This document shows positions 7,909 to 47,590 of a stretch of DNA of 47,590 nt, in pieces. Within the stretch, counting starts at the first letter, position 1; every line of letters begins with the position of its first letter. A program made the position numbers and the translations under genes. This DNA is from Psammoneis japonica (lineage: Eukaryota): positions 124,001-171,590 of the forward strand of contig QPGO01000167.1 in NCBI GenBank assembly GCA_008632985.1. The letters run 5' to 3'. The notes under the pieces were generated by a model that was not told the origin of the DNA, ran no database searches, and was given only the letters and a program-made list of their open reading frames with translations.

Positions 7909-8304
7909 GACGCGTTCCAGCCCTAGGTGGGAGCTCGTAGTACTGACGTGTGACAACAATAATTTTTATCATCCGTCGTATGTTTCGTACGTAGATTTCT
8001 ACGTGTGATATTTAAAAAAAATTGTCCAGACTCGCTGTTTTGCGAAGCCCCAGACGTTTTATATAACAAATTTATAGAAACAATAATGCGCCAGTTACAT
8101 TCTTCAATGTCTGAAGAATGTAACTGGCTAAGTAAAAAATGATGTACTTCAATCATGTGCGAGTTTGTGCGTTCGCAAAATTGCCTCATTTTCTGTTGGC
8201 GATCATTGACATTTTAATTACCGTATAATTTTACTACGGAGCTCGCACGTAGAAGTCTACGGGCCCAATGTCACACGGATTCCCACCTACGTCTGGAACG
8301 CGTC
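7909..8304. mobile_element. 396-bp MITE, copy 1 (unmutated)
   Basis: TIRs GACGCGTTCCAG...CTGGAACGCGTC extending imperfectly to about 24 bp; 4-bp TSD CACA (7905-7908 / 8305-8308); central 17-bp-arm hairpin at 8090-8128; second copy at 40833-41228. Confidence 0.92.
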
Positions 8305-15561: not shown

Positions 15562-15645
15562 GCGTGCGCCAAGTCGAAGTTGACATCGGCACCCGGAATA
15601 AAGATACCGAACATTCGACAGTATTCAGGAATGATTGTATGAATT
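15562..15645 (+). repeat. Diverged ~85-95 bp direct repeat, copy 1 (copy 2 at ~17342-17439), flanking the EF-hand pseudogene
   Basis: Shared core ACCCGGAA(T/A)AAAGATACCGAACATTC plus flanking GTGCGCCA..GAAGTT and GTAT.CAG..TGAATT similarity. Confidence 0.65.
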
Positions 15646-15799
15646 CTCTTGTCGGCCGATGATTCCTCAACAAGTAAAACCAGTAAAACCGACGCCCATG
15701 ATGACGCTCGTTCGACGACTCGGGTGTAGCCGCCGTCGGGCTGCTGGCTGCTGTCCTCAATTCATGGATCGCTGGCCGCATCCTGCGGCAACACGTTTA

Positions 15800-17240: not shown

Positions 17241-17464
17241 AGCCATTTGGTTGGCAGATTAAAAAGGTTTGGAAAGATGTATTTAAAAAAAGTTTCTTGC
17301 CTGCAGTGAAACAGTTTCGACTGTGCTTTACTGCAAAGAAGGCGTGTGCGCCAGTAAAGTAGAAGTTTACGTGGGGTACCCGGAAAAAAAGATACCGAAC
17401 ATTCAATGGTATCCAGCATAAAAATGATATTTGTGAATTATCTAGTCGGATGCGTCAAGGAAAA

Positions 17465-19610
17465 GGCAGCTCGTCAAACAGTGTGGGGAAAGCTACATAA
17501 TGACACCATTGAAGTAGACGGTCATTCGTTGAGTAAGTTCCCCTTATGTAGCTTATAACTTTATAAGCTACATAAGGGAAGTTTATAAGCTACATAACGC
17601 AATGATTCAACAACCTGCTCTATGTAGCTTATAACTTTATAAGCTACATAAGGGGAGTTTATAAGCTACATAAAGCGATGCATTATACACTACATAACGA
17701 CAATCGATCAATTACTTAACAAGAGTCATTGTTGTCAGTATAGTGAATTCAGACGCACGACGTCCAGACGATTGAAGCACCTACGAAATAAAGAACGAAC
17801 GAACGTGAAGCCCTCCATCAAAACAACACAGGAAAAAGACCACATGATGGCAGCAACAGCCAATGCTAGATTGTGCCACCAAACCTTTTCCAATGCCAAT
17901 GCATTGCATGCCACATTTTGCTCTGACAAGCAGCACATCCATGAAAAGAGACAGGTTGGACAAAGTCCAAAAATGAGCGAGAAAACTCCTTCTGTGATTT
18001 TGTTGTCATCCACAATCTGGAATCTCACAACTTCAACAGCTGATGTTGCTTTGCCACCAAACTTTTCCCACCAACAATGCTGACACATGACATGCTTCAT
18101 TGCACTCGGAAAAGTGCACACACATGAGAAAAAAGAGAGGTGAGAGAGAAAGAGCCCGAAAATTGACAAACATTCCTTCTGAGTTTTTTTGCTGATGTTC
18201 AGGCTCTTTTCTCAAAACTGTGATGTTTCAATTTGCTCATTCTTGACAGATTGAAGAGTGCAAAATTTGTTCTTCAGACAGCATTTCAAGAGGGGAGACA
18301 AGGGGCGACTCAAGGGCACAGAGCATTCGTTGTGGCAATCTGCAATCTGCCACTTTTGGAAAAGTCTGGGAACAGCTGGCAAATGAGGTTGCTTTTGCCT
18401 CTGAACATTTGAGTGACTGCATGGGATGTTGCTCACTCTGGCTGCAGTGGCCGGCACCCAGGCGCAACTTCTTCTTGCAAAGATGTTCACGTGGCTTGGG
18501 TCCCCCCCACCTCTGAACATCAAGTGGAGCCAAAAAAGGTTGCTCCCTGGTGAGACATTGATTGACACTTCCAAGGAAGGGAGTGTCTTTCAATGCTGTG
18601 GGCACAAAATCTCGGCCGCAGCAGGAGGGCTGCACACTGACCTAAAAAGCTGGCGTGTGTGGGTTGACTGCTCTTGGCATCATGACTGCCACCACCACTG
18701 CCATTTTGACTGCCACCATTGCAACTTCTGCCATTGAAATTGCTGCTGTTGTGACTGCTGCAATTTCAACCACTGCTGTTGTGACTGCTGCCGTTTGCCG
18801 CTGGCGCCATTGCGGCTGCTGCCACTCGGACTGCACTGCAGCTGCTGCCGCTGCAGCCACTGCCATTGCAGCTGCCACTGTGGCAACCACCATTGTGGAA
18901 ACTGTGATTGTTGCAACTGCCATCATTGTGACTGCTGGCGCCATTTGGACTTCTGCTGTTGTGACCACTGTTCGGCTGCAGGGTTGGCTGCGAGGAGCTG
19001 CGACTGCACCACTGTTTGGACTGCTGCTGTTGAAGCTTGAGTGTGCTTTTGCTTTTTGCCTTGATTGGCAATGCTCTCTGCATCTTGCTTGTTCTGGAAA
19101 CATCCTGTTTTGCCTGACTGTGCCCTTCCTCTGTTTTTGGTCCCCCCACACAAATGCTCTTTTGCACAGCTGCCTTGAGATTTTCCAAGGACTGCTGAGT
19201 TTGTTTTTCCTCATCTCTTTTTTGCTTGTCAATCAATTCTTGCTCTAAAGCCTCTTGCCTTTCCCTTGCTCTGGCCACTTGCTGCTCTGCCATGACTGCT
19301 TTCTGATGCTTGCTTTCTTGTCTGGAGTGTGCTTCCACAATGGCCAAGGCCAACCAGGCACTTGGCTTTCATGCCAGCTCTTCTTTGGCATCACACTTGG
19401 CCCCAATGGAATTCCTTGTCCTTTGATGTGGGCCACTCTTCTGCCAGAGCCCTTTCTGCTGCCACCACTGCCGGCTCCGCCCATGGTCATTGATGCTGTT
19501 TTGTGTTCCTTCCAAAACTTTGACACCCGGGCTGCTTTGGCGTGTTGACTCTCGCTTCGCTCGAGTCGAGTTAATCAAAACGCTCTGCCCACACCAGGTG
19601 AAAAATTGCC
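17465..19610. mobile_element. Non-autonomous DNA-transposon-like element E1 with imperfect ~29-bp TIRs and subterminal palindromic repeats
   Basis: Left end GGCAGCTCGTCAAACAGTGTGGGGAAAGC vs right end reverse complement GGCAATTTTTCACCTGGTGTGGGCAGAGC (19/29 by hand). Motif TTATAAGCTACATAA repeated in both orientations at 17541-17675. Decayed minus-strand ORF remnants inside. Confidence 0.7.
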
Positions 19611-19616
19611 GGAAAA

Positions 19617-20071
19617 GGCAGCTCATCAAACAGTGTGGGGAAAGCTGCACAACAACACCATTGATGCAGACGGTCATTCGTTGAGCAAGTTCCCCTTGTG
19701 CAGCTCATAACTTCACAAGCCACGTGAGGGAAGTTCACAAGCTGCATGACGCAATGATTCAACAACTTGCTCTGTGCAGCTTGTGACTTTATGAGCCACA
19801 CAAGGGGAGTTTACAAGCCACACAAAGCGATGCATCACACACTGCATAATGACAATCGATCAATTGCTTGACAAGAGTCATTGTTGTCAGCACAGTGAAT
19901 TCAGACGCACGACGTCCAGACGATTGAAGCACCTACGAAATAAAGAACGAACGATGCTGTTTTGTGTTCCTTCCAAAACTTTAACATCCGGGTTACTTTG
20001 GCGTGTTGACTCTCGCTTCGCTCGAGTCGAGTTAATCAAAACGCTCTGCCCACACCAGGTGAAAAATTGCC
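19617..20071. mobile_element. Internally deleted 455-bp derivative E2 in tandem with E1
   Basis: 19617-19953 matches 17465-17801 and 19952-20071 matches 19492-19610, joined at GA microhomology. AAGGAAAA flanks the pair (17457-17464, 20072-20079) and GGAAAA separates the two elements. Confidence 0.8.
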
Positions 20072-20309
20072 AAGGAAAAATCCAATGTTGGATGGAAACT
20101 CTTGCAAACAGTTAACAGCACAATACAGCAGCGAAGCGCAAATTTTTCTCTACAGTAGAGTAGAGAAAAGAGATGAGCAATAACTGCTCTCTACTCTAGA
20201 GTAGCTGCTAGCTAGCAGAGAGTGACAGCACATCACTCTCTGATTGCTCTGTGTTGATTGTTTGGCGACGAAATGAACAAGCGCATCGCGTCGCGTCCCG
20301 CAAACAACT

Positions 20310-28290: not shown

Positions 28291-30792
28291 TCAATTAAAC
28301 TGGTCTTCGTACTTTACCCAAAATCCAGTGGTGTGGTTATGGGCAATCTCACACGACATTACACGGATGTATTCGTCCGATTTTGGATGGTGCTGTTGAG
28401 AGAGACAGTTCATTTTTTGGTCCACCGGGCGAATGTCAAACTTGTGGCGCTTGAAGCTTCCAAAACCATCTCCTGGTACAAAACGCTGTTTTGACACACT
28501 GGCATTACATTTGTACATATCAACCCCAAAGTCATTGTTTCGTCGAACCCCAATACACTCGTCTGTTCCGGCCATTCTGATCATGTCGCCCTCCATATTG
28601 TCCATGTCCGACGAAAAGACGAATTCCCACTGTGTGATGTTGGGATTCTTGCACCGTTGGATTTGAATTCGTTCATTCCACCAAACAATGCAGTATTTTC
28701 TTTCATGGGGTTTTCCTTGCCAGCGGTAATCGCTTTGCCAATGAAGTTTGATAGAGTGTGGTGACACGATTTCACCGGTTGGAGCTGACGTTGAGGACAT
28801 GCTTGGAGCGAGTGATGAGGTTGGATTCATGGTACTGACTGGACTTATAGTAGGGCTCAGGGTCGTATCTTGGATGGTTCCGTCAAGTTCACCAAACACT
28901 TTAACCTCACGCAAGGCATATCCTGAGGCAGTGCTCCGCTTCACTCCCCTCACCGCAACGAACCTCGCTCTCGTTCCTGTATTCAGGATAATTTCCTCGC
29001 TCTTGGACATGCTATTTACAATGGATCGTTGTTGCGCCCAAAATTGGCCGCCAATAGATGTTTGAACGTCATAGCTCCGCCCGGGCGAGCTAGCCGCGGT
29101 CCAGTACAAGACCAATCGATTCACGGCATTTACTATCCCCAAATCTAAAATTATCCATTCATTGTCGTTTGGCTTACTTTGCCACCGCGTTTGCTTGGAT
29201 TTGTCAAAGGCATTTTCCACTGGGAATTGTTGCATCTGAGATGATGCAGTTGCACTCACGATGGTTAGAGAAGAAGTGCCTGGCTGATTCGATCCTGGTG
29301 TTGACATCGTTGTTGGAATTGGGGTAGGCGGGGAAATCACGGTTGTTGGAGCAGGGGATGGGGTGGCAGCAATATTATCGTACCCAAATATCTCGAACTC
29401 TCTCATCGAGTATCGAGAAGCACCTCCTCCGTCGAGTCCTTTCATTCGGACATATCTTGCCATGACCGCTGTGGCAAAGTCGATGACTTCAATATTCGAG
29501 CTGGTCTTGACCATTGATTGCTGCGGGGTCCAAGTTACCGTGTCATTAGACGTCTCAATGTCGTAGGTTCTGGCTGGGCCGGTCACTGGAGTCCAGTGTA
29601 AGATCACCCTCGTCACAGAGTACGCTGCACCCATGTCTACGTAGATCCACTGGCTATCCCCCAGCTTACTTTGCCAGCGCGTTGTCACAATTCCATCGAC
29701 AGCGTTGGCGGCGGGGCCTGATATTGATTCTGTTGACGCCGCCGATGCGACGCGTGGGAGCATAGAAAGGCCAGAAGATACGACCTTGCTGTTGATGTCC
29801 CCTTGGATACTGAATTCTCTTAGTGAGTACCCTTTTCTACCACCACGTGCTATTCCTTTCATTCGCACGTATCTGGCTTTCACTGGAGTCGAAAAAAGAA
29901 TGAATTGTGTCTTGGCCTTGTTGTTGACGAACCACCTCTCAGTTTTCCAAGGCGTGTTCAGATCAGATGATGTGTCGATGGTAAACGTTCTTCCCGTCCC
30001 CTGAACGGGAGTCCAGATAAGTATTACCCTAGATATTAAATAGATTGCGCCCAAGTCCACGTAGATCCATTCTTCGTCAGAGGCAAAGCTTTGCCATCGA
30101 GTGTTTCTCATTTGGTCGATTGCATTTGACGCTGGAAGAATCGAGATCTCTGACGATGCCACTGCTCGAACCAGAGGTAGTGGGGATCTCATGTTGGTTG
30201 GTGATCCGCCCTGGGTTACGGTTGATACAGGTGGAGTGACACTTGGAGTAGAAGCCGTAGGAGCAGGTGTTGAAGAAGAACCCAAAGTAGAATCTCGTCC
30301 TGTCATTTCGATCTCTCGGAGCGAATACCCTAATCGCGACCCTCGCTTTTCGCCCCGAATGCGAACATACCTAGCATTCGGACCAAGGGGTAGATCAACT
30401 GCAACAGTTTTTAGCAAACTTTCTGACACCTTTTCTTGAAACTCCCAGACACTAGCATCTGTCGAAGTTTCAATGGCAAACGTTCTTCCGGGACTTTGCA
30501 CAGGCGTCCAATGCAGCACCACTTGTGTCACAGAATACGTATCACCCATGTCAACATAAATCCACTCAGTGTCGTGTGAATCACTTTGCCATCGGGTGCT
30601 TTTGTCCCCGTCAATTGAATATTCCGTTGGAAACTGAGCCGTCTCAGAAGAAGCCACCGCGTTAACACGGGGTAACGAGAATTCAACGAGCGCTCGTCCA
30701 GGGTTTTTCTCTGTTCCCACGCTTAGTCCATTTACAATGACCAGAGTCCATATTGCAACTACCAGGAACAGAAAGCAAGGTAGCTGTGTCAT
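28291..30792 (-). CDS. Secreted protein: 4x F5/8 type C (discoidin/CBM32-like) domains, S/T/P linkers, C-terminal ricin-B-like domain
   Basis: Four repeats of ASS...NA.DG...TRWQS....EWIYVD(M/L)G....(S/T)RV.L.W...ARYVRM.G..RG...YSLRE; signal peptide from MTQLPC (30792); Cys-containing C-terminal domain with KLHW...RWQ and HHPK. Confidence 0.88.
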   Translation of the reverse strand: MTQLPCFLFLVVAIWTLVIVNGLSVGTEKNPGRALVEFSLPRVNAVASSETAQFPTEYSIDGDKSTRWQSDSHDTEWIYVDMGDTYSVTQVVLHWTPVQSPGRTFAIETSTDASVWEFQEKVSESLLKTVAVDLPLGPNARYVRIRGEKRGSRLGYSLREIEMTGRDSTLGSSSTPAPTASTPSVTPPVSTVTQGGSPTNMRSPLPLVRAVASSEISILPASNAIDQMRNTRWQSFASDEEWIYVDLGAIYLISRVILIWTPVQGTGRTFTIDTSSDLNTPWKTERWFVNNKAKTQFILFSTPVKARYVRMKGIARGGRKGYSLREFSIQGDINSKVVSSGLSMLPRVASAASTESISGPAANAVDGIVTTRWQSKLGDSQWIYVDMGAAYSVTRVILHWTPVTGPARTYDIETSNDTVTWTPQQSMVKTSSNIEVIDFATAVMARYVRMKGLDGGGASRYSMREFEIFGYDNIAATPSPAPTTVISPPTPIPTTMSTPGSNQPGTSSLTIVSATASSQMQQFPVENAFDKSKQTRWQSKPNDNEWIILDLGIVNAVNRLVLYWTAASSPGRSYDVQTSIGGQFWAQQRSIVNSMSKSEEIILNTGTRARFVAVRGVKRSTASGYALREVKVFGELDGTIQDTTLSPTISPVSTMNPTSSLAPSMSSTSAPTGEIVSPHSIKLHWQSDYRWQGKPHERKYCIVWWNERIQIQRCKNPNITQWEFVFSSDMDNMEGDMIRMAGTDECIGVRRNNDFGVDMYKCNASVSKQRFVPGDGFGSFKRHKFDIRPVDQKMNCLSQQHHPKSDEYIRVMSCEIAHNHTTGFWVKYEDQFN

Positions 30793-31429: not shown

Positions 31430-33400
31430 AGACATGGAGAGCATGCGGCATGGAACCATGTCCAAACAAGCTATGTTCTATTCTTCTGTCTCTTCTCACT
31501 TGAAAGGCATGTTTGCATTGAAGGTGGCATTGACACATCATGCATTTGCAGCACCAGTGTGAGGATTTTCAAACCGACAATGTCATTCTCCGTCTCCATC
31601 TTTCCCATCTGACATGCAACACTGTACCTCAAGACACACAGTGCCTCAAGACACTCCACAAAGTGTGTTTTAGTTTTTGTTTCTTGTTGCCTTCTAATCT
31701 GCAGATGAGGTTTGAGACACGACCTGAGCAACTTTGGGTCGCTGTCGGGAACGACTTGTGTGCCTTGTCAGCTCAGGGTTGTCATCAGAAGACCGTGTGC
31801 TTTGTGGTGACGAGGTGTCAACGAGTTTTGCAAACTTAAGACACACAGCACAGTGCCTCAAGAAATGCAGTGCCTCAAGACACCATCACGGAACACAGTG
31901 TGTTGCACCTCAAGCTCGTCTCATTTCTTGCCAAGTGGTGCATGACTGTCCTCTCTGCACTGCAGTGAGGTTGCGGTGTGCGCTGGATGACTTGAGACAG
32001 TGCCTCAAGAAATGCAGCACCTCAAGACACCATCACGGAACACGGCACATTGCATCGCAAGAAGCAAAACAACCCATTTTGTTCGTTGACGACAATGTGC
32101 TGGTGTGACCTGTTGAGTTCTCGCGATTGTTTTTAGAGCAAGTGACATTCATCCATGACACTGTCTGGCCATCTGCTGAATGTTGCAGGACGGTCCTTTG
32201 TTTTGCATGTTGAGTTCCTTGATCACCTGCTTCCAAATCGTCTCTCGCTCTTTCTCGCACAGAGCGAAGTGAGCTCTCAAATGGGAAAATTGCAGAACCA
32301 CATGCCACAGACACGGCAGGTGACACGGTGTTGGTCGGACACATGGATAAAAACAGCATTCTCGATTCATCAAGCGATGCACAAGAAGCATCTCAGTGCA
32401 CAATGAAGTGTTGCGAGAACACTCGGCTCACAATGTTGAGTGTGAAGTCATTGATCACCGTGGTTGTGATGATGGGGTGGCTTTGTCACTGAAGCATGGA
32501 AAGGAACAATTAAAATTAGTGAAGGTTGGAAAGACTGAACATGTGAGTTGATCCGATTTGAGCTGTTCTGCTCTCACTTCTGTTTCCATCTCTCTCATTG
32601 CTCCTTGTCCTTTTCAGTCTTTCAATTTGGATGTGATTCATGTTGGACTTGCAGCGAGACAGGCTGTTGGTCTTGGTTGCGGATCACGCACGTAAAGTCT
32701 GTAAGAATGGTGCCGCGCATGGGTGCACATTCTTGAGTGTCGAATGTCTGTCTGTCATCATGATTGCACAGTGGAATGCGCGATTTTTACAGAGCATTCA
32801 CTCATGAATGTCGTTGCATCTTCGCAATTCAAAAATCCCGCCGCCACCAAAGATTGCGTTGTTTCTGCGCCCATTGGTGCAGACCTGATCATGGTGTGTT
32901 TTTCTACAAGATCTTCTGCGGCGTCCATTTGGCCAACACAACAAGACACGCTGCACAACACCGCCATTGTCATCGCTCTCAACACCTCTTGAACCTCTCC
33001 AGGGGATGTTGACACTCAACATCCACATCAGTGTTGTCTTCGTTTCACTCTTCTGCTTCGTGGCAGCTCGTCGCGACCTAAGTTGCTTTCCTGCATTCCA
33101 TGAGTGAGGCGTCACTGCCCCACCAAAGAATCGCAATTCCGCGGATGTGTCAATCCATGCAACAAGTGACGTGCCGGTTGTTGGTGCTGCAAGTGTGACT
33201 GCGTGTGCACTGCATTGCATCATGCTGTCATGGTGGACTCATGATGCGTCTCGCATCATCATCTCCATTGTACATTTGAATCAGTCCATTGCCGGCAACA
33301 CCTTCCACCACTGCACAAAAGCCCCTGCCACTGTTGCGTGTGGATCCACGAGACAAGCAGCAACACAAAAGGTCCCGCCGCAACGACGGTTGCTTGAGCC
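31430..33400. mobile_element. TpA-depleted decayed block of unknown family with six copies of a (G)TACCTCAAGA-derived motif at 31620-32030
   Basis: TA depletion; motif variants GTACCTCAAGA, GTGCCTCAAGA, GCACCTCAAGA; ~55-bp duplication 31850/31997. Confidence 0.5.
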
Positions 33401-35429
33401 ATGTCCTCGAGTGCCGAGATTTCATCTGACCATGGTGGTGGCATCAATGGCCTTGTAGAACCTCAGCCGAACAAGCTTGTGACGCAGAACGAATCCATCC
33501 AAGCTCTGCGCATGTCAAGGAAATGTGTCGGCGAGTTGGAGGAGGACACAATGACAGAGTCCAGGCAGAGTGGTTCCCTTTTGAGCAACGAGGATGATGA
33601 TGACATTGAAAGCGAAAAGCTGTTGATGGATGAGGACTTTGTGTTTGACTTTGAAGACGACTTTGATGCCACGGATGCCACGGATTTGTCAAGGTGATTG
33701 GATGGTTGCAATGAGAGTGACATTGCAGAGGAGGATTCAATGACAGAGTCCAGGCAGAGTGGTTCCCTTTTGAGCAATGAAGATGATGATGACATTGAAA
33801 GCGAAAAGCTGTTGACGGATGAGGACTTTGTACTTGACTTTGAAGACAACTTTGATGCCACGGATTCGTCAAGGCAATTGGATGGTTACAATGAGAATGA
33901 CATTGCTGAACTTGTCGTGAAGTTCAGAGATGCTGCCGACAAAAGCAAAGCTGCGCATGAACTTTTCAGCCTTGAAGAAGAACCACTCCAAGACACAACA
34001 TCAAGGAAACCAACGAAGAAAAGGAAACGAGCAAGAGGTCGTCAAGCCGCCAAATCGAAGTTGAAGAAGCGTCGCAGGCGCACTGGGAAACCTGCTGCAT
34101 CGAAAGCTCCCCCCAAAAAGGTGAGTTTGTTTGCACTCAAATTATGATGATCTTGGTTTACAACTGGCACTCACTTTTGGCTTCTCCAGTTGTCGCGAAT
34201 GACTCCATCCAGGTTGAAGACAAAGGCCGATCAACAACAAGAAATGCTTGTGAATGTCGAGTTGCCACCAAGTCTCAACCTGGAGGCATCTCCAAGAGAA
34301 GCGATCACCAAAGTTTCGGAACTGGTGGAGAAGGTTGATTCGTGCCAACAAGCAAAGGAGCTGGCAACTCGAATTGATGCCTGCATCATCCTGTTTGCCC
34401 ATGCAAGAGGGCACACGGTTCGCCCTTTGAATCTTGGCAATGGGACATCAGACAACACAAAGGGAATCGCGCTGCTGCACTGCGCACCCGACGATTGCAG
34501 TTCTTGTCTCTCAATGCTGGACAAAGCTGTTGGGAATGGCTCATCATGCCTCAGCTTCATCTCCAACTCCAGTTGTTGCATCAATGCATGCAAGTGCATT
34601 TGGGCGGCAATGCATTGCAAGGAATGGATCAAAGATGCCAAGGAATTGGCCAAACTCATTTGTGCAGTTAACTTGAATCCAGTTCTGGCGGAGAAGAAGA
34701 GCAAAAACTGACAGCATGATGAGTTTTGTAGGACGGTTGGATGGTCTAAAAAAGAATGGCATTGGTTGGCCGCATTGAGAATGGAACTGCAGGCAAAGGC
34801 AATTTGCCTTCGAGACCGAAAGGGTGGTGCACAACTCACAGCTCTCCAGTGGATGAGCAAGTGTGATGCTGTCAAGATGCCTCACTGTGATTTCGAGACA
34901 AACGATGATCATGGCGCATGTCCCGTGCTTCATCCACAAGCATGGTTTGGTGCATCCATTTGTGCAGAACTCCTCGTGCTTGAGAATGTGTCGCAGAGGG
35001 AAATCAACGACTGCAGTGCAAACTGTTTTTGTGGGAAGGTTCTTGAGCATCAACACAAGACGAAGAAGGCTGCACTGTTCTCAAAACGTTTGCAAGCTGT
35101 GGGTGCAACCAAAGAGGATGTACGAGAGTGTGAGTTAGAGGTGAAGCTCATCAAGAAGGCAATGTTGGAGCTCATGCAAAAATTCAAAAAAAGCGTTTTG
35201 ACAAGAAAGAACTCAGCTGCTGGTCAAGAAGCTTGTCAACACATGAGAGAAATTTGTTTTAAGACATTGCACAAAGAATGAATTCAAAATGATCACCTCG
35301 AGTCAGAGACGTTCCATGGAATGACGCTGCATCAACACGCTTGTTGAATTCTCAGCACAGAGTCAGGGGCTGGAACGGGCTTGACTCTTTGTCAACACAG
35401 AACGGCAATGAGGCTGTTGTGTCATGGAA

Positions 35430-38010
35430 AGGGTTGGCTCCAAAGACTCGATGACATCTGCGCATGCAAGGAAGAGCACGGTGACAGTGAGCCGCCTTGC
35501 ACTTGGATGCTGCTGTGTCGATTTGTCATCTAAACTCCCTTTTGTTTGCTTGTTGTGACTCCAGCTGCAATCAGCCACATGAAAGATCCGTCTCTCTACC
35601 ACCGATGGATCCGGAAACAATGCAACAACAAGGAGAATCTAAGCGAAATGAAGCGTCGAGAACTGGAAAAGCCAGTTGGTGATTTGGATGACTGCTCGCG
35701 ACAGTGTGACACACCCAAGTCTTTTGAAGAATGACTCGAGGACATTTGTGTGTGCAAGGAAGAGCATGGTGATGGTGAGCAGAGCCGCTTGCGTGTCTCA
35801 ATGAATGGAGTCTATTTAGAATCTAACTCTTCATTTGTGTGCTTGTTGTGTGTCTCGCTCAAGTCATCAAAGCCAAAGACAGGTCTCTCTATGAATGGAT
35901 CCAGTGTCAATGCAACAACAAGGAGAATCTAAGCGAAGTGAAGCGTCAAGAACTGGAAAAGCCAACTGGTGATTTGGACAACTGCTCGCGACAGCATGAC
36001 ACACCCAAGTCTTTTGAAGAATGACTCGAGGACATTTGTGCACACAAGGAAGAGCACGGTGATGGTGAGCAGAGCCGCTTGCGTGTCTTGATGAACAGAA
36101 TCTATTTAGAATCTAACTTTTCTTTTGTGTGCTTGTTGTGTGTCTAGCTCGAGTCAGCCAGACAAAAGACAGGTCTCTCTACGGATGGATCTGGAAACAA
36201 TGCAACAACAAGGAGAATCTAAGTGAAGTGAAGCGTCAAGAACTGGAAAAGCCAACTGGTGATTTGGACGACTGCTCGCGACAGCATGACACACCCAAGT
36301 CTTTTGAAGAACGACTCGAGGACATTCGTGTGTACAAGGAAGAGCACGGTGATGGTGAGCAGAGCTGCTTGCGTGTCTCAATGAATGGAATCTATTTAGA
36401 ATCTAACTCTTCTTTTGTGTGCTTGTTGTGTGTCTGGCTCAAGTCAGCCAGACAAAAGACAGGTCTCTCTGTGGACGGATCCGGAAACAATGCAACAACA
36501 AGGAGAATCTAAGCAAAGTGAAGCGTCGAGAACTGGAAAAGCCAGTTGGTGATTTGGACGACTGCTCGCGACAGTGCAACACACCCAAGTCTTTTGAAGA
36601 ATGACTTGAGGACATTCGTGCACACAAGGAAGAGCACGGTGATGGTGAGTAGAGCCGCTTGCGTGTCTCAATGAACAGAATCCATTTAGAATCTAACTCT
36701 TCTTTTGTGTGCTTGTTGTGTGTCTAGCTCGAGTCAGCCAGACAAAAGACAGGTCTCTCTACGAATGGATCCGGCATCAATGCAACAACAAGGAGAATCT
36801 AAGCAAAGTGAAGTGTTGAGAACTAGAAAAGCCAGTTGGTGATTTGGACGACTGCTCACGACAGTGTGACACACCCAAGTCTTTTGAAGAACAACTCGAG
36901 GACATTCGTGTGTGCAAGGAAGAGCACGGTGATGGTGAGTGGAGCCGCTTGCGTGTCTCAATGAACAGAATCTATTTAGAATCTAACTCTTTTTTTGTGT
37001 GCTTGTTGTGTGTCTGGCTCGAATCAGCCAGACAAAAGACAGGTCTCTCTGTGAATGGATCCAGCATCAATGCAACAACAAGGAGAATCCAAGCAAAGTG
37101 AGGCGTTGAGAACTGGAAAAGCCAGTTGGTGATTTGGACGACTGCTCGCGACAGTGTGACACACCCAAGTCTTTTGAAGAATGACTCGAGGACATTCGTG
37201 CATGCAAGGAAGAGCACGGTGATGGTGAGCAGAGCCGCTTGCGTGTCTCGATGAACAGAATCTATTTGGAATCTAACTCTTCTTTTGTGTGCTTGTTGTG
37301 TGTCTAGCTTGAGTCAGCCAGACAAAAAACAGGTCTCTCTGTGGATGGATCTGGTGTCAATTTCGAGACAAGGAGAATCTTGGTGAAGAAAAGCATCAAA
37401 AACTGGAAGAACTCATTGGTGATTTGGGCGACTGCCAGTGCTTCACATGCAACTCTTTTGAAGAACGACTCAAAGACATCCACGCATGCAAGGAAGAGCA
37501 TGGCGGCAGTGAGTCGAGGCTTTTTTGTCTCTTGTTTTACAGAATCTATTTGGAATCTAACTTTTCTTTTGTTTGCTTGTTGTGTGTCTAGCTCGAGTCA
37601 GTGAAGCCAAAGACAGGTCTCTCTACGAATGGATTCGGCATCAAGTTCGAGACAAGGACAACCTCAGTGAAGAAAAGCATCGAAAACCAGAAGAGCTGGT
37701 TGGTGATTTGGATCACTGGTTGCGACAGCGTGAGTCACCCAAGTCTTTTAAAGAATGACTGCAGGACATTCGTGCATGCAAGGAAGAGCACGGTGGTGGT
37801 GAGCAGAGCCGCTCACGTGTCTTGTTGAATGGAATCTGTTTAGAATCCAACTCTTTTTTTGTTTGCTTGTTGTGTGTCTAGCCATGGTCAGCTGCACGAA
37901 AGATCCGTCTCTCTACAAATGGATCCGGCGTCAACTTCGAGACAAGAAAAATCTAAACAAAAAACAGTGTCGAGAACCAGAGGGACTCATTGGCAACTCG
38001 GAAGCCCAGC
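35430..38010 (+). repeat. About nine tandem ~290-bp exon+intron units, each encoding an HA-like domain
   Basis: Period 290 bp (35839, 36129, 36419...). Each unit has G|GTGAG donor, CTAAC branch point and CTAG acceptor; spliced consensus SFEERLEDIRAYKEEHGD|ARVSQTKDRSLYEWIRKQ...NLSEVKRRELEK. Confidence 0.85.
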
Positions 38011-38262
38011 CCGGCTTGCCTCGGCCTCCTCCTCCTCCGCTTCCAGTCTGCACTCAGCTCCCAGGTCAAATGATTGCAGCACACCCGCGCTTGCTTCCAC
38101 CTCCTTTGCACCTCTCAGCGATTGCCGGTTCTCCACCCGTTGTTCTTCCTTCTGCTTCCGCCCCTTCACTCGTTCTTGCTCTTAATCCCGCCATGAAGAC
38201 AGCTGTTCAGCCCCAACAGCCTGTGCAGGTTGTGCATTCCTCCAACCCAGGGTTTGCATGCC

Positions 38263-38445
38263 CTCCGCCACCACCACAAGTGCACCCACTGCTGCCGCAA
38301 GTGCATCCGCCGCCACCGCAAGTGTGTCCGCCGCCGCCACAAGTGCACCCGCCGCCACCGCAAGTGTGTCCGCCGCCACTGCAAGTGTGTCCACCACTGC
38401 ATGTGTGTCCGCCGCTGCAAGTGCATCCGCCACTGCAAGTGCACT
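38263..38445 (+). repeat. 21/18-bp coding minisatellite PPPPQV(C/H), ancestral PPPPQVY inferred
   Basis: Units CCGCCGCCACCGCAAGTG followed by CAC, CAT or TGT. Confidence 0.8.
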
Positions 38446-39165
38446 GTCACCCCTCCTCTTGGGGGGAAAGGAGGGAAAAGCATTGCACAGCAGGAAGAGA
38501 GGGTTGTGAAAATGTTGGACTTTTGTGACTGGCGACAGCTCCGCAGAAGTGATGCCAGCATGTCGTGTAGAAATGAGAAACGAACATCCTGTTTTTTTGA
38601 CAGACTGCGACTGGCATCGCTTTGCTCACACGACTTCTTGCGGTGATCTGATTCTAGAGACAGGTGATCAGTGGGGATGGGAGGACTTCACTGGTGCAGT
38701 TGGTCCCTTTCCATTCCCAAGCTGGAGCGGCATGGCCAGAGGGAGGGAGAGGTGGGAGCGCTTTTAGACTGTCCACTCAGCTTGCTGCCAAAGCTCTTCG
38801 GAAGAATGAGCAACAGCAGCTTGCTTCCAAACACCAACTTGAACGCGTTCAATGTGGCAGATGCGGGGGGTGATTTCCCGGTGCGTCATCAACGGGCAAT
38901 GAGGTCATCTCCCCTTGTCGGTCTTTACGAGGCCAGTGACTGGCGTCGCTTTGCTCGCATGACTTCTTGCGGTGATCTGATTCTAGAGACAGGCAACCAG
39001 CAGGGATGGGAGGACTTTGCTGGCGCAGTTGGTCCCTTTCCATTCCCAAGCTGGAACGGTGTGGCCGTTCCGGCGCCACCCACGCACACTGGTGTGGGTG
39101 GTGGCGGTGCAATTGGGTGGGTGGGTGGGCCTGGCTGGAAGGCTGAGGCGTGGCCTGTGATGGAA

Positions 39166-40200
39166 TCACGGGTCGGCAGCAGCAAGGGGCACATTGGCGT
39201 TGGGGTGCAGGACAAATTGGCCACCCGCCAACATGCAGGTTGCGAAATTGCACATGACGGGTTCTGCTTGTAAGTGGAGGTAACGGAGCATCTTGTCGGA
39301 GCGCCATCGGCCTAAGAGGCGGATCACGTTGGTGTCAACATGGGCACATAGGAGGGCCATGGCACCAGCCACACGCAAACAGCAAGCGGAGACATCGGCG
39401 GGTGTGAAACCCAGCTCAGCAGGGCCGATTGCCAGAATTGCGGTGCGTGGGATGCTGGTGATGTCGGCGGGAGAGACACGGCACCAGGTGTTGTCATGCA
39501 AGTGCACACCAAGGGGCGTGTCTGGTGTGGCGCCAAAGGCGCGGAGATGTTTCACGCGACGGACAAGGGCGCGTGTCGGACAGAGGTCAGGGTGCCCGGA
39601 TGGGCCAAGACCTGTCACTTCGCCACGCACGCCATTCTTTCTGTGTGGCAAAAGTGAGCGTGCCAAAGGTGGCGGTGTCGAGGTGTTCATCAACGCAGGT
39701 GAACAAATCGAGGCAAGCACCTCCCGCGGAGAGGCGAACGTCCCCCAACCAAAATGGAGTGGTGTCGGAAGGGGTGGCGGTGCATTTGCCTGGCCGCAGG
39801 AGGAAGAAAAAGGCCAAAGCAGTCATGTCTGCGATGGCTTGGGTGCCCGGATGGTTGGTCAGGGAAGCGGCATGGGCAATCCACAAGAGGACAGCGACGG
39901 GGACCAGTTTGACCCGGTCTGGCGGAGGATCCTCTTTCTTGTAGAAACGGATTTGGCGGCTGATGCGGAAATCCATGTTGCCTTGGAGTGTGTGCCGCGG
40001 GTCCGGGGACCCCATTGCAGCAAACGTTTGGCCAATTGACCGTAAGGCACCCTCAGCGGTGCATGCGCGGATGGGATTGCCACGTGGGGCGATGGCACCT
40101 GCATGGAATCGGTGCACAAAAACTTGGAAAAAGATGACTGGGTCGTCGACGTCTTGCAAGAGAGGGTCGAGGGCCAAGTCGTTACAGAAACTTCACCAGA
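39166..40200 (-). pseudogene. Tyrosine recombinase of the Ngaro element (frameshifted)
   Basis: AFFFLLRPGKC (R-I), LCPTRAL, SACCLRVAGA (R-II), LLGRWRSDKMLRYLH (W and catalytic Y). Confidence 0.88.
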
Positions 40201-42760
40201 GGTCCCAGTGGGCATTGCTGGAGCTGGCGGGAAGAAGCGGCAACGCCGTGGGCAACGGCATGTTGCACAGCGCCGAGATCACGTAGGAACGCAGCACGGG
40301 TGGAGGGGTCCAAAGGCGCCAAGAGGGAGTCTGTGGGCAGTGAGTGTTAAAATGTTGCAAGAAGGCACGGTTGGACAATTGTTGCAAGCAAGAGGCGTCA
40401 TCTGCAGCGGTGTTTGACGGTCCCGGCAAGCAGTCGTGGAGAGACAGGCAGCAGTGGAAACGTTGGTGGTGACCTTGGTGTCGAAGGAGGGGTGCTGCGA
40501 CCTTCGCAGTCGTGGTGGAGCCCTTGCGTTGACGAAAGAGAGTGCCGGTGTTGTCCGTGCGGTCAAGCACTGTGCACTCTCGAACGTCAAAACAGTCCGC
40601 CGCTGCACAGGATTGCACAACACTGCCGACCAACTCCAAGTCGGTGTTGGCAATGGGGCTGCGGGGATTCTTAAAAGTGGACAGGCGGTCGGTGACTGCT
40701 TGAGGGAAATGCATGCGCCAGACAATGGGTCCGGCATCATGTTGTGGTCTCCGACGGCAAGCAGTGGAGTGACGCAGAGTGGTGCTGCATGCGACCGCTG
40801 ACGGTGCAGGGAGAAGGACGCCACCTGCGCCAGACGCGTTCCAGCCCCAGGTGGGAGCTCGTAGTGCTGACGTGTGACAACAACAATTTTTGTCATCCGT
40901 CGCATGTTTCGTGCGTAGATTTCTACGTGTGACATTTAAAAAAAATTGTCCAGACTCGCTGTTTTGCGAAGCCCCAGACGTTTCACATGACAAATTTATA
41001 GAAACAACAATGCACCAGTTACATTCTTCAATGTCTGAAGAATGTAACTGGCTGAGTAAAAAATGATGTGCTTCAATCATGTGCGAGTTTGTGCGTTCGC
41101 AAAATTGCCTCATTTTCTGTTGGCGATCATTGACATTTTAATTGCCGTGTGATTTTACTGCGGAGCTCGCACGCAGAAGTCTGCGGGCACAATGTCACAC
41201 GGATTCCCACCTGCATCTGGAATGCGTCGCCATGACCGGCTGCATCATGGCAGCCCGTGACAGTGGGCGACAGGGGGACAAGTTCTTGGATGCGGGTGGG
41301 GCGGAGATCGAGCCCGCGGCACAACAACCGAAAATCGTCCAACATGTCATGAAAGTTGCGGGCAAGACGAACTCGCCCATCGGGTTTGGTGTGGAGCAAG
41401 GCTTCTTGGAGTTCGGAGAACAGATTGTGAGACCTGGGAATGCCGGGCGTGAGGGATCGCAGTTCGCCAAGAAGCTTGTGCAGGTCGGTGAGCGCTGCCC
41501 GCTTGCGGTGGCGGGGAAACTCTTCGTGCGGCGTGGTGCGGAGGCGCTCGCGGCGTCGCGGCGCAAGGCTTGTGGTCATGGACAAAGTGTCAATGATCCA
41601 CCCTGGGACCTCCTTCTGCGTTGACCAAGTGGCGTTGCCTTTGCGGAGCTTTTTGACTGAGATTGGCTCCTTGCGACTTGCGTGATCTCGGTCGTCGAGT
41701 GGACGAAATGCATCGTCAATGGCGTGCATGATCGTGCGATGCATGTTGCGCAGCGATTGTTTGGAGCCTTGGGCGGCGCCGACAAAGTCATCAACGTAGA
41801 CATCAACACATTGGAGGCACCGCCGGTGGTGGTGCACGAGGTGTGGATCCGGCGTGTCTGGCACTGGGACAGCGATGGACGGATTCATGTCAGCAGCATC
41901 AGCGTGGTGCTTTGGTGGTCGGCTGTCGAGGCAAGGTTCGAGTGGGTGTTCCGGTGCCCGATGGTTGCGCACGAGCTGGCGATCCACAATGCCGGTGACT
42001 GTCTTGGTCGCTGTGCCAAATGCCAGAGGTGAGTTGGACCATCCCATGGGCAACCGAGTTGGCATGGCCACCAGGGGAGGTTCCCCGGGAAGGCGGGGAA
42101 AAACCACACCTGGTGTGGGTGCTTGCTCGGGCGCCAGCTGCATGCGGTAGAAACCATCCGCTGGGTCAATCTTCATTGGATGGATGCGGCCCTTGTTTGG
42201 ATTGGCAAGGAGAACGTGCCGAAGGATGCGGTCCAGCGTGCGCCCGAACTGCATGGATTCCATTGGCACGTTTGGCTGAGCAGAGGGATCAACACCGTGG
42301 AACGTGCAATCCACAATCGGTCGTGGTCTGCGCGCGTGTTGTGGGACAACGCCGACAGGACTCAGCCGTAGATTGGGTTCATTCTTGACGTCGTTGCATG
42401 GAACAACCACCCAGAAACCCTTGTCAACACAGTCAGACATGTCTTCGCGCAAAAACTCAATGTGTTCGTAGGCGGACTTGTGTGGTCCTCGAGCGATGCC
42501 ACCTTGGAGCTCAGCGTTGGACCATGGCTCGTCTGCAACAGTGACCGGCACCCCTCGACATTTGCAGCCGGTGAGCACTCGGTGTGCTGCATGCTGTCGC
42601 GTTGTCACCAATGGTCCCCAGTCACCTCTGCCACTGCACAGACGCAACAAGCAACTGAGGCCTCTAAGGCGCAATAATTTTGCATCGCGTGTAATTTGCT
42701 TGCCTGATTTGTCAGTCAGTGCTGATGCAGCCACATCCTGTCCACGTGTTGTGGGGAGGA
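40200..42760 (-). pseudogene. Reverse transcriptase/RNase H of the Ngaro element, interrupted by MITE copy 2
   Basis: LSPVGVVPQHARRPRPIVDCT, KIDPADGFYR, LPMGWSNSP, CVDVYVDDFVG, KEVPGWIIDT. RNase H DAAGHG|AGGVLLP is restored by removing the MITE and one TSD; then NTDLELVG, TDNT and NTAADDAS. Confidence 0.9.
40833..41228. mobile_element. 396-bp MITE, copy 2 (TpA-mutated), inserted in Ngaro RNase H
   Basis: Colinear with 7909-8304; 4-bp TSD GCCA (40829-40832 / 41229-41232). Confidence 0.93.
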
Positions 42761-42879
42761 AGTGCCATTTTCTAGACTCCACTTGTGGGGGTTGTGGATG
42801 CATGGGCTTGTGTGCCCGTGCGGGAAGTGGCTCTTGGTTCCATGTCCCCGAGCAGGAACCATTGCCAATGACCTGTTCG

Positions 42880-45142
42880 GTCTTCCAATGTTGCACACCC
42901 CACGTGAGAAGGTCGACCTGCTCCTGCTCCATGTGGCTGTGATGATGATCGGCGCGTGATCTGCAGTTGTTGTTGCACTGTCCGATGAAATGGCATGGGA
43001 GACAACGTGGCGCCCCTTGGGAATCCGTGGGCAAGGCGACATTGTCACGGGCGCAGCGCTGCTTGACGGTGCACGAACGCACATTGGGATGCTCCCGCAA
43101 GACCGCGAAGCGTTCGTCGTGCTGTTTGTTTGCGGATGATGGAATTGTCGCCAGGTGCATTGACGCAGTTTTGTCCTGGCTGTGGCTGCCCAGAAGTCTG
43201 CGAACGCGGTGTCGTGGGCGGTTGAAGGACAGACGTCGGTGGGTCGAGATGCCAACAGTGGGAGCCTTGTGCGGCCTCAGCCACCACTGGGAGCGGTTGA
43301 AATGGGACAGGGTTTTGTGAGTGCATTTGCGCCTGGAACCAATGGCACATCTTTGCCTGCGCGCAACGTTGCAGGTCCGCTGGCAACGTCGGGTGCGACA
43401 CCACTTGCACCGCCAAATCGTTCGCGCAGACATCCATTGACTGGCGCATGTGAGTCAACCACTGTGCCAGTGGATGTGCCGCGCCAAAGGCTGCTGAGAG
43501 AACGATGCACAAACTGTTGAAGGACTGCTGAACTGCCTGGATCGCAGTGGCCACCATGGCGTCGTCCAGGGCCTCCAACACACGCGCACCTGCCAAGGAT
43601 GGTGTGCCATCGCCTCCATGAATCTGTTGACACATGGAGCTGCGACAGGCGGTCTGCTTGGCTTGCTCCGGTGCAGTGATGCCGAACAAGAAGGGGGTGA
43701 TCCCCTGAGTTAATTCATCCTTGTCATGCCCAGCAAAGTCGACTTGGGTGAGTTTTGTGACCAGGTTCACGGTCACTGGCACGCTGAAGCACACGTGGTG
43801 TGCTTGACGTTGCTCATCAATTGCATTTTGGATGGCAGCAATTCGGCCGGTCTTGGGAGAGGCCGCCAGTTGCACCCAGAGTGGTGGCAGGTTCCCCGCA
43901 GAACTCCGTCAGTGTCTTGCCGCGTGATGCCGCCTGTTGGCGCGCTTCTGCATCCAAACGTTGTTGGCGCTGTTCTGCTGTCAAGCTCTCGATGGCCGTG
44001 ACCACTGGCTCGAACTGGCATGGTTGCGGCGGTTGGCCTGTGTGGTGCGGAAGATCACGCTGCACCATTGCGTCAAAGAAACAAATGAGCACTTCGTTGG
44101 GTGGCTGCACCATCGTTGGCCATGCTTGCGCTGCTTCGGATGTGTGTTGGTCCCATGCTGTCGCACAACACGCCACTTTCAAAAAGTCCAGAAGTGGCCT
44201 GCATTTGTTGACCGCATTGGCAGCTGTGACAGCCCCCAGTGCCCGGGTGAATGCTTGCTTTGGCGTCAACGGCGTTGAAAGCAAGAGATTGACACATGCA
44301 AATGGCACCATCATGGTGTTCTGCATCCTGACCTCAACCGCGTCTGGGTCGCTTGGCTGCACTTGTGGGTGCAATCCTTCCGGGGTCGTGACAATGTGAG
44401 CTTGCAGCGCTGCATCGGTCGGCACCCACGTGCCGTGTTGGGCCAGCTGAAAGGCATCGTTAGCGACGGGTGCAAGTTGGCATTGTCCCATCGTCAGGTC
44501 GCCTGCGAGCGCAAAGAATTGTCCGTCCCACGGTTGTGCTGGTCCCTGCCACCGTGATCGGGTGCTGGGTTGCGCGATGAAACACCTGCACAACTCCCGC
44601 ATTGTTGCCTCCTTGCACCCGGCAGTGCTGTGCCAGTGCCACAGGCAAATCGTGCAAAGAAGCTGCTCCAACACAGGTCCTCAGCACGTCAGGATCACAG
44701 CGGGATTGCCCTTGCAGTGGGACCATGAAGTCCTGCATGAGATTTCCGCACAGTTGCCGGCGTGCGGATCCTTTGTGGCGTGCGAGCAGTGATCCCGACA
44801 GGTCCGGATTGCTGCCGGTGGCGCTGGAACTCCCTGCCCCACGGGACCTGCTGGCAGCACGGGTGGTGCTTGAGGTGCCGGCTGTTGGGGAGCCCCTCGG
44901 TCCCGGGGCTTGTCCTCCCTGCGCTGCGGCAGGTTGTGCCGCTGCTCCTGGCACTGCCGGCGCCATGGGATGCACCAGTGCTGGCGGCACGTTCTGGGCG
45001 TTGTTGGCCGCCGGAATCGGTTGTTGGGGTTGTTGTGCCGCCGCAGCGGCGTCCGGCGGCGGATTGTTTCCGACACTTCCGTCTTGGTGCACATGACGTG
45101 TGACTGTCCTGCGAGCTTCACAGGTGCAGCGGCGGATGGCAT
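42880..45142 (-). pseudogene. Gag-like ORF1 remnant of the Ngaro element
   Basis: Position between A1 and RT; Pro/Ala/Gln-rich N-terminus; C-terminal CLPCHFIGQCNNNCRSRADH zinc-finger-like motif; several frameshifts. Confidence 0.6.
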
Positions 45143-45620
45143 CCTCCGCCGAACACAATAGCGCTTTTAGACTATCTATTCGGCTTGCTGCTAAAGCTCT
45201 TCGGAAGAATGAGCAACAGCAGCTCGCTTCCAAACGCCAACTTGAACGCGTTCAATGTGGTAGATGCGGGGGGTGATTTCCCGGTGCGTCATCACGGGGT
45301 AATGAGGTCATCTCCCCTTGTCGGTCTTTACGAGGCCAGTTATAATAAATAAGAACGCGCGCACCAGAACCAAGAACCAAACCGGTCACCCACATGTTTT
45401 GATGACTTGGTCAACAGCTTTCTACCCGAAAGGATCGTCTGGAATGGAAAATAGGAGTAGCAAGTCTCCATTCTGTAGTGGAAAAGTAGTGCCTCCGCAG
45501 TACCGACTGGCATTATACGGCGAGTGGAGGGAATGGAAGCGAAAAGCGAAGTAGTATATATGGTACACTCGCGTGTAGTAGTTACATCACATTTCACATA
45601 TAAGTGTTTAATTTGAAACC

Positions 45621-47590
45621 CTAAAACGGATCATTTTCTGTATCCTCGTATTTCTCCCAGTATCCAGTTGTGTGACTATGGGCTTGAGAGCAGGCGGTGA
45701 CAAAAAGAGGCTCCAAGGCCTTTGGATGGTGTGCTTGGGTAAGACAGTTGGTTGGCTGATCCACAGGCCGAATGTCAAACCGGTGGAATCTGAAGCTTCC
45801 AAATCCTTCCCCTGGCCTCCATCTTTGTCTTGATACACTCGGATCACAATCTAGAAGTGTGACGGCCTTTTCTCGCGTAGGTCTGACCCCAACACACCTG
45901 TTCGTCCCCACCATTCTGATCATGTCTCCCGGCAAATTGTCTACCTCGGACGTGAAGTCAAATTCCCAAAGAGTCGTGTTTTCCAACCTGCAGTGGTCAA
46001 CCCTCAGGCGACCCTCAATGAGATTCATGCACCACTTCTTTTCAATAGTCTTGTTTTGCCACCTGTAGGTGGAATTCCAGTAGAGCTTGATTGCATGGGG
46101 CGAAATAACCTGCGCAGTTGGGGCTGGAGATGAGCTCGGTGCTGCAGTCATGTCGAAATTGATCCCGACTTCATTTCCTTGGATGTCAAACTCCCGAATA
46201 GAATATCCATCGTTGGTTCCACTCTTGATTCCCTTCATGGCGACATATCGTCCAGTCGCGCCACTGTCGAGAGGGAGAAAGTCCGTTTTCGACGTGCTGT
46301 CTACGATAGATCTCCGGACAGTCCAGACATTGGCATCGTTGGAGGTTTCAATGTCGTAAGTCCTCCCTGCTGCCGGGCCGTCTTTCCAATACATTATGAT
46401 GCGGTTGATTTGGTACTCCTTACCCAAGTCGACATAAATCCACTCATCGTCCCCGGGACCACTTTGCCAGCGGGTGCTTCTTACCCCGTCGATGGCGTTA
46501 GTCGCCGGCAAACTCTCCGTCTCTGATGAAGCCGTCACTCCCACGCGCGGAAGCATAGCTCTTGGATCAAACGGAAGCGAACCTTCGGAAGTTGGAGCTG
46601 GAGTAGAGATATCTCCGGTAGTTGGAGCTGGTGTTAGAGGAGTTCTGGTTGGGCTTGGAGTAGCGACCGGCGAGGGCGTCACACCAAGGAAATCTCCAAA
46701 AATCTCAAACTCTCGAATGGAATACCGATTGGCATTTCCTCGACTGACTCCTCTCATGCGGACATACCTTGTGACAACTCCCACAAAGAAATTAACGACC
46801 TCAACCTTTCGATTACTCCGAACAACGGATTCCTGCTTGTTCCATGTGATGGCGTCGTCGGATGTTTCAATGTCGTAGCTCCTGCCAAGACCCTTCACCG
46901 GAGACCATTGTAGGATCACTCGTGTTACGGAGTACGAATCGCCCATATCGACATAGATCCACTCATTGTCTTCAAGCTTACTTTGCCAGCGTGTGTCCAC
47001 CATTCCATCGATAACGTTACTTGCAGGCAATACCTTGGTATCAGAAGAAGCCTTGGCCGCTCTTCGAGGAAGAGTCGAATAGCTTGACGTAGCTTCCGCA
47101 GTTGAAAAAATAGTGGGAGACGGCGTGGCATTCGGATCGAAAACTGTAGGACTTGGCGTAGTGGACGGCTCCGCACTATTTGGGTCACCTTCGACGATAA
47201 ACTCTCGTAGTGAGTACCCTCTGATGTTATCGAGTTTAACTCCTTGCATTCTGACGTATCGCGCCTTCGCCGTGAAGAGGATGAATATCGTCTGCTTGTT
47301 GCTATTCATGATGGACTTTGGGTTGTCCAATCTTTCAAATCCATGGAAGTATCGATGTTGTAAGTCCATCCTCGCTGTTCCGCTGCTGGCCAAAAGAGAG
47401 TTAATCGATTCACAGCATATACTGCTCCAAGTCTACGTAGATCCATTCGTCGTCGGTGGGGTCACTTTGCCAACGGGTGCTCTTCACACCATCGATCGCG
47501 TTTTTCTCTGGATATCTCGGCAACGCCGATGAAGCAGTAACTCCAACTCGTGGAGAGAGGAATCTCACTGTCGCAGTTGGAGTTGGCTCC
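45621..47590 (-). CDS. Paralog of 28291-30792: F5/8 type C repeats plus ricin-B-like domain; 5' part beyond window, frameshifts ~47300-47420
   Basis: TRWQS...EWIYVD(M/L)G and RYV.M.G...YSIREF repeats; C-terminal KLYW..YRWQ...GFGSFRFHRFDIRPVDQ...HHPK nearly matching the other copy; another RWQSDPTDDEWIYVDL at ~47430-47480 in a different frame. Confidence 0.85.

Follow-up and report, generated by a model that had tools for sequence, protein, structure and literature searches.

Hypermutation that erases the dinucleotide TpA has been published once so far, in a preprint on one alga and its viral inserts. In the chlorarachniophyte Bigelowiella natans (B. natans), integrated DNA of nucleocytoplasmic large DNA viruses (NCLDV) and of virophages is hypermutated from A:T to G:C at TpA only (Mettrop et al., bioRxiv 10.64898/2026.01.13.699255). 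According to that preprint, the signature was seen directly in mutation-accumulation lines, with the rate up ~1000-fold; the target is a silent, single-copy viral insert; the process is episodic and active only in some lines; and clusters poor in TpA and rich in CpA and TpG are enriched in reverse transcriptase (RT) and DDE domains (bioRxiv 10.64898/2026.01.13.699255). The same preprint discusses adenosine deaminases of the ADAR/ADAT type that favor a 5' U/T (bioRxiv 10.64898/2026.01.13.699255), and its text makes no mention of diatoms, boundaries or edges; no description of TpA hypermutation in diatoms was found in the literature searched. Here we analyze a 47,590-nucleotide stretch of Psammoneis japonica DNA (contig QPGO01000167.1, positions 124,001 to 171,590; the whole stretch is hereafter called the window), in which TA has been lost from most of a Ngaro-type tyrosine-recombinase retroelement, from much of a short element that we call E and from one of two copies of a miniature inverted-repeat transposable element (MITE). 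What is new here is the occurrence of a recently described kind of hypermutation in the transposons of a diatom-like genome, with detail on its targeting.

As in B. natans, the changes are TpA to TpG and TpA to CpA only, on both strands, and they affect foreign or silent DNA while nearby genes are normal. In B. natans no second copy was required, the NCLDV insert being single copy; here, twin repeats of one element fare unequally. The two cases differ in host (here a diatom-like stramenopile, there a chlorarachniophyte), in targets (here a tyrosine-recombinase (YR) retroelement, a MITE and satellites) and in degree, erasure being near-complete here (TpA observed/expected ratio (o/e) of 0.09) versus 0.45 in the NCLDV of the preprint. 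A further difference is that CpG decay occurs alongside here and that the edges of mutation are base-sharp and lie inside elements.

Repeat-induced point mutation (RIP), known from Neurospora and other Ascomycota, changes C:G to T:A at CpA and mutates both partners of a duplication. The process described here resembles RIP in ruining transposons by dense transitions and in involving the dinucleotides TpA and CpA/TpG. Unlike RIP, it acts in the opposite direction and on the other base (A:T to G:C, with TA destroyed), removes stop codons instead of making them, hits twins unequally and has left one copy of a high-copy MITE untouched. The comparison with RIP drawn in an earlier note on this DNA is usable as a contrast only; the chemistry and direction of RIP are absent (0 of 39 coding changes, and a 59:0 split between twin repeats; see below). 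Adenosine deaminases of the ADAR/ADAT type offer a second likeness, namely A to G beside a 5' T; however, the mutations described here arose in place, on either strand, in a DNA transposon and in tandem repeats, so editing of an RNA intermediate cannot account for the pattern.

Ngaro elements are defined by split direct repeats in the order A1...B1-A2-B2, with the internal repeats located downstream of the YR (PMC4157794). These repeats are present in the 6.7-kb element at 38609..45340 (minus strand), which is hypermutated save for A1 and consists of an outer 5' repeat A1 (45160..45340), an internal region, an inner repeat B1 (38938..39066), the inner twin A2 (38757..38937) and an outer 3' repeat B2 (38609..38737), all on the minus strand. 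Element E (17459..20079, plus strand) is short and non-autonomous, with the same A1-internal-B1-A2-B2 layout: an outer 5' repeat A1 at 17459..17802, an inner repeat B1 at 19492-19616, the inner twin A2 at 19611..19954 and an outer 3' repeat B2 at 19953..20079. An RT was sought in E with the Ngaro homologues and no tblastn match was obtained. The two MITE copies, M1 (7909..8304) and M2 (40833..41228), both without assigned strand, are 396 bp long, with 24-nt terminal inverted repeats that are 92% complementary (GACGCGTTCCAG in M1), 4-bp target-site duplications (CACA for M1 and GCCA for M2) and a perfect 17-nt inner hairpin. M2 interrupts the RT-RNase H reading frame of the Ngaro element between ...HDAAGHG and AGGV..., and among the reads mapped on the window, which are short-read DNA contigs, one from another copy of the element skips 40829-41230 and thus shows the empty site. 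The segment 7907-8304, which matches 40831-41228, is thus a MITE and no fragment of the Ngaro element.

Twin repeats within one element form a natural control, in which sequence, age and copy number are equal and place alone differs. Across four pairs we found 59 sites with TA in only one copy, and at all 59 the TA was kept in the outer or unmutated copy; no site had TA only in the inner copy. The probability of a 59:0 outcome under an even split is 2^-59. The Ngaro A1 repeat carries 7 TA, 2 of which are kept in A2 and 5 of which have become TG or CA, while for E the corresponding figures are 38, 6 and 32 (A1 against A2) and 3, 1 and 2 (B2 against B1). M1, the unmutated MITE copy, has 31 TA, of which 11 are kept in M2 and 20 are TG or CA there. 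The strings cited in the earlier note to illustrate this contrast are present as described: ACTATCTATT, GCTAAAG, GGTAG and GGTAAT on the plus strand of Ngaro A1 (45160-45340), and ACTGTCCACT, GCCAAAG, GGCAG and GGCAAT in A2 (38757-38937), which is the reverse complement of our alignment. The same note had described the outer ends of E as retaining TA and the inner twins as lacking it, and this too agrees with the counts (A1, 38, and B2, 3, including TTTAAC and GGTTAC, versus 6 in A2 and 1 in B1).

The twins are otherwise very similar. Ngaro A1 and A2 differ at 11 of 181 positions, comprising five changes from TpA to TpG/CpA, three from CpG to TpG/CpA, one A to G outside TpA and two adjacent differences that amount to a one-base shift. 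Between the A repeats of E (344 bp), 32 changes carry the signature versus at most three others. On the plus strand the products at the 59 sites are CA at 32 and TG at 27, indicating that both strands were hit. In total, the four pairs contain 59 changes from TA to TG/CA versus four A:T to G:C changes outside TpA. Those four (at 45179, 17572 and 19518-19535) are all in mutated copies, with none in spared copies, and three of them lie directly 5' of an erased TA (ATA to GTG, TTA to CTG), which hints at clustered or processive action.

These comparisons support a process of TpA to TpG/CpA (A:T to G:C) hypermutation in which TA was lost, not gained. The earlier note had proposed this direction, and it is backed by coding changes, relatives, satellite columns and the MITE foldback. 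For the first of these, the RT open reading frame (ORF) of the Ngaro element was aligned to 33 homologues. Conservation reached at least 70% in 235 columns, and the ORF deviates at 45 of them. Six of these columns (residues 743-760) were dropped, being translated from the MITE, which left 39 changes: nine TA to CA/TG, nine CpG decays, nine transversions, eight two-change differences and four other A:T to G:C changes. Changes in the direction of RIP (CpA/TpG to TpA) numbered zero among the 39. Within the RT region (41229..42752, minus strand), conserved Leu is replaced by Pro and Tyr by Cys: residues 426, 431, 448 and 617 are Pro encoded by CCA where 26, 24, 33 and 33 of the 33 homologues, respectively, have Leu, and Tyr makes up 0.4% of the RT versus 2.0% in homologues, with Cys at 3.7% versus 0.9%.

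Among 79 metagenomic relatives, TpA o/e ranges from 0.37 to 0.84, compared with 0.09 in the Ngaro internal region without the MITE. None of the 79 shows TA erasure, and they supply a baseline and no second example of the asymmetry. One of them (L026) has end repeats at 1-329 and 6078-6406 that differ at 24 sites, 17 of which pair CpG with TpG/CpA, while none of its 16 TA has been lost; CpG decay is thus one-sided there with TA left alone, and the sequence may be a join of two copies. The 290-bp satellite of the window also informs direction: 3 of 10 informative columns contain TA, TG and CA together, and 3 more mix TG and CA. Lastly, the MITE foldback is stronger in the TA-rich copy, with z of -10.0 in M1 versus -6.5 in M2 and 63 versus 41 long-range pairs.

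The data further support mutation after insertion, in place on DNA. M2 is a DNA transposon without an RNA stage and has nonetheless lost 20 of 31 TA, which indicates action on DNA. At four sites, one of the Ngaro repeats B1 and B2 has TG where its partner has CA, as fits an ancestral TA that was hit twice independently. We therefore rejected editing of an RNA or cDNA intermediate: both strands were hit, a DNA transposon was hit, and B1 and B2 were hit independently.

The mutated tracts end inside the elements. At the right edge of the Ngaro tract there is no TA in 44700-45158 (459 bp), followed by one TA at 45159 and then 7 in the 181-bp A1. At the left edge of E, the sequence is TA-rich at 17260-17789, has one TA at 17867 and then holds 3 TA in 1,743 bp. 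The right edge of E falls within A2, where the last lost site is at 19893; TA is retained at 19934 and 19941, as are the three TA of B2. On its left side, the Ngaro element adjoins TA-free DNA (1 TA in 38185-38608), and its B2 is hit, as is B1. Overall, all three element ends that adjoin normal DNA are spared, over 181, ~345-410 and ~150-190 bp, and the single end that adjoins mutated DNA (Ngaro B2) is hit. The two gene-side edges are 462 and 379-420 bp from the end of the neighboring ORF.

With regard to the earlier note, its proposed protection of block edges holds insofar as a few hundred bp are spared at the ends, while the edges are abrupt steps and not gradients, as in the change from 0 TA in 459 bp to 7 in 181 bp. 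The first repeat of E does not lie beside a gene; it is preceded by ~200 bp of TA-rich DNA (17260-17458) and then by a TA-free tract (15798-17259). The note's claim that mutation does not depend on having a duplicate is upheld in the sense that a duplicate is not sufficient for being hit, as seen in Ngaro A1/A2 and E B2/B1, which were born alike and met unequal fates, and in the untouched M1. M1 belongs to a family with a summed contig depth of ~97,000 versus 57 in unique flanking DNA (~1,700-fold), and yet this copy stands unmutated in a mutated block: in its flanks, 6800-7908 (1,109 bp) has 1 TA and 8305-9007 (703 bp) has none, while M1 itself keeps 31 TA and its CpG. M1 may have inserted only after the most recent episode of mutation. 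Targeting by position is supported by the four ends; the chromatin or methylation mark behind it and the mutator enzyme are both components that we infer.

CpG decay follows the same boundaries. At eight sites (three in Ngaro A, two in E A and three in the MITE) a CpG survives in the spared twin but not in the mutated one, with Ngaro A1 keeping every CpG that A2 lost. Contigs of other copies have CpG at 38833 and 38960, indicating that these two losses are private to this copy, and the 40 variant rows listed from mapped contigs are mostly private CpG decays of this copy. Over 190 bins of 250 bp, CpG o/e is lower in the 83 TA-poor bins (0.59) than in the remaining 107 (0.95; Mann-Whitney p = 2e-15). 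Spontaneous deamination of 5-methylcytosine would give such a pattern, with CpG to TpG/CpA concentrated in the same tracts and one-sided in the same twins; unlike the process described above, it accounts for the CpG part only and is unable to turn TA into TG/CA. Diatom transposons are CG-methylated, and DNMT5 is present in P. tricornutum (PMC9998398). The shared one-sidedness of CpG lends indirect support to what may be a methylated or silenced domain, and CpG decay with the same edges suggests that the mutated tract is most likely a silenced, cytosine-methylated chromatin domain.

The explanation that we lean towards, with modest confidence, is in-place TpA to TpG/CpA hypermutation of bounded tracts, most likely a silenced, methylated domain, aimed by place and not by homology. 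Under this explanation, bounded tracts would cover transposon bodies, and each tract would halt abruptly 130-410 bp inside the element end wherever unmutated DNA adjoins. With the tract edge inside the element, sister repeats that were identical at insertion would diverge, the outer one remaining intact and the inner one being rewritten. A putative adenine-directed DNA mutator would work inside the silenced domain, and its targeting would depend on chromosomal position instead of homology. The unequal fate of twins speaks against RIP-like sensing of homology and points to either a sharp-edged mark (chromatin or methylation) or a transcribed unit.

Several observations weigh against targeting by a silenced domain. 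One CpG site (17572) is one-sided in the reverse sense, although it is equally readable as an A to G change outside TpA in A2 of E. Short-read contigs break inside Ngaro A1 (one starts at 45311), and none of those listed runs from A1 into the internal region. The step is located ~10-65 bp from the inner end of A1 in both elements, which a diffuse chromatin edge would not predict. The ~600-bp gap at 17260-17867 between two mutated tracts is unbridged, which speaks against simple spreading. M1 is untouched inside a mutated block, and thus place alone does not decide and timing must also matter. Lastly, the comparison is based on two elements and four ends. We also scanned the unmutated gap near E for a barrier element using tRNA and Rfam models, and none was found.

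Contigs from other copies bear on whether context or element structure sets the edge. In one contig, internal sequence (to 45154) runs into an A repeat that is placed on A2 and not on A1, a hint of another copy whose A1 is mutated; in another, the B side (to 38759) continues into an A repeat placed on A1. While these joints onto A1 and A2 are placements chosen by the mapper and not sequence read directly, both hint that in other copies the 5' A can be mutated, or the 3' A unmutated, which favors context over structure.

An alternative that we consider unlikely is that the tract corresponds to the transcribed unit of the element, the mutator being recruited via a nascent or antisense transcript, as in RNA-guided co-transcriptional silencing, so that the 5' repeat upstream of the start remains uncovered. 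In its favor, the spared repeat is the 5' A1 in two unrelated elements, with the step at its inner end (45159 versus 45160 in the Ngaro element; 17790-17867 versus 17802 in E), and the E tract stops 20-60 bp short of the A2 end, excluding B2. The 600-bp unmutated gap beside another mutated tract also suggests element-by-element aiming, and RNA guidance is raised by the B. natans authors as well (bioRxiv 10.64898/2026.01.13.699255). On the other hand, Ngaro B2 is hit and E B2 is spared, for which a second rule on neighbors would be needed, and the contigs hint at a copy with a mutated A1. Moreover, the strands are equally hit (32 versus 27), and TA is scarce in M2, in the satellite and in the 21-bp repeats as well.

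Still less probable is that the outer repeats were mutated and then replaced, whether overwritten from an unmutated copy by recombination or gene conversion, through integration into a pre-existing solo A-B or by an assembly misjoin of reads from different copies. The steps do coincide with structural junctions of the elements, unmutated A copies appear to exist elsewhere (the contig in which the B side, to 38759, continues into an A repeat placed on A1), and the Ngaro family is found at ~10-17x the depth of unique DNA, with contigs that break inside A1. However, the same event would be required at three ends of two unrelated elements, and the right edge of E lies inside A2 and not at a junction. 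The twins are also near-identical beyond the signature, with one transversion and two to three other changes in 344 bp in E A and one A to G plus the one-base shift in Ngaro A, and A1 has a private base at 45295 that is absent from all three contigs and from A2.

We give very little credence to a classical RIP-like C to T process (CpA to TpA) in the outer copies with the TA-poor inner copies ancestral: while the differences do pair TpA with CpA/TpG, which is RIP's dinucleotide pair too, the TA-poor copy has Pro at conserved Leu (24-33 of 33) and Cys for Tyr, 0 of 39 changes fit the RIP direction, 0 of 79 relatives are TA-poor, the TG-versus-CA sites and three-state satellite columns need a TA ancestor, and dinucleotide ratios in the TA-rich copies are ordinary (TpA o/e 0.7-1.2), resembling those of the surrounding genes. 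For the Ngaro body this reading is already refuted.

The internal region of the Ngaro element retains recognizable coding remnants. For its long ORF, 120 RT and RNase H homologues were found among the matches listed with E ≤ 1e-81, two of which bear names from Chaetoceros and Cyclostephanos, and tblastn with 60 of the 120 placed RT-RNase H matches across 39841-42752. The RNase H region (40262..40831, minus strand) resumes the RT frame past the MITE insertion. Further downstream lies the C-terminal part of a putative tyrosine recombinase (39169..39822, minus strand), for which the nearest Atlas cluster is 'Tyr recombinase domain-containing protein' (0.96) and Pfam gave no match; this segment also contains motifs that we take to be those of a tyrosine recombinase. 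A Pfam search of 69 + 48 ORFs from mutated tracts returned no domain beyond one weak RVT_1, and no methyltransferase domain, which Ngaro elements lack, was found among the 69, although the element is degraded.

At the scale of the window (GC ~49%), a map of 250-bp bins separates two kinds of DNA. Normal stretches have TpA o/e of 0.4-0.9 and carry intact genes, while TA-poor tracts have 0-3 TA per 250 bp with TG and CA in excess and are located at 1-3500, 6800-9007, 15798-17259, 17868-19893 and 31500-45158. An intact sulfatase gene (3958-5856), an intact FG-GAP protein gene (20313-22559) and an intact F5/8 type C gene with discoidin domains (45621..47393, minus strand), whose stop codon is 462 bp from the mutation edge, all lie within normal bins, and hypermutation is confined to foreign or repeat DNA. 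The large tract (31500..45158, right edge 45159) comprises unclassified repeats, the 290-bp satellite, 21-bp repeats and the Ngaro body.

Within that tract, the satellite (35442-37981) has ~8.7 units that are 78-91% alike and is partly erased, with 3-6 TA per 250 bp, its units varying between TA, TG and CA at the same columns; the 21-bp GC-rich repeat is at 38264-38441. The tract is flanked by two paralogous genes with discoidin-type repeats (28382-30615 and 45721-47496), and transposons have seemingly accumulated between these tandem paralogues. A second tandem pair, of FG-GAP genes (20316-23469 and 24282-27451; ~4 kb, 78% identical), has an ordinary substitution spectrum overall, with a mild skew (50 sites with TG/CA in copy 1 versus TA in copy 2, and 21 in reverse) that was not used as evidence. 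The TA-free tract at 15798-17259 is bracketed by a ~110-bp direct repeat of ~80% identity (15550-15665 and 17340-17458), both copies of which are TA-rich and the right one of which stops exactly at the start of E A1; together, tract and repeats may make up a third element, mutated in its body and spared at its ends.

Loss of the stop codons TAA and TAG around 37500-45500 has left many long, overlapping ORFs on both strands, with 69 of at least 70 amino acids in 38400-45500. Such false ORFs in mutated tracts would mislead gene callers, and domains there are hidden from Pfam.

Through the paired repeats of a single element, the question of how this hypermutation is targeted becomes testable. As a broader and more tentative proposal, which we regard as possible and no stronger than that, an adenine-directed mutator may be common to distant algae of the SAR group (diatoms and chlorarachniophytes) and may act with near-nucleosome precision on silenced element bodies, omitting the promoter-bearing 5' repeat and short stretches by active genes, with homology playing no part. 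If true, the sister repeats of YR and long terminal repeat elements would serve as a built-in ruler and clock of this defense.

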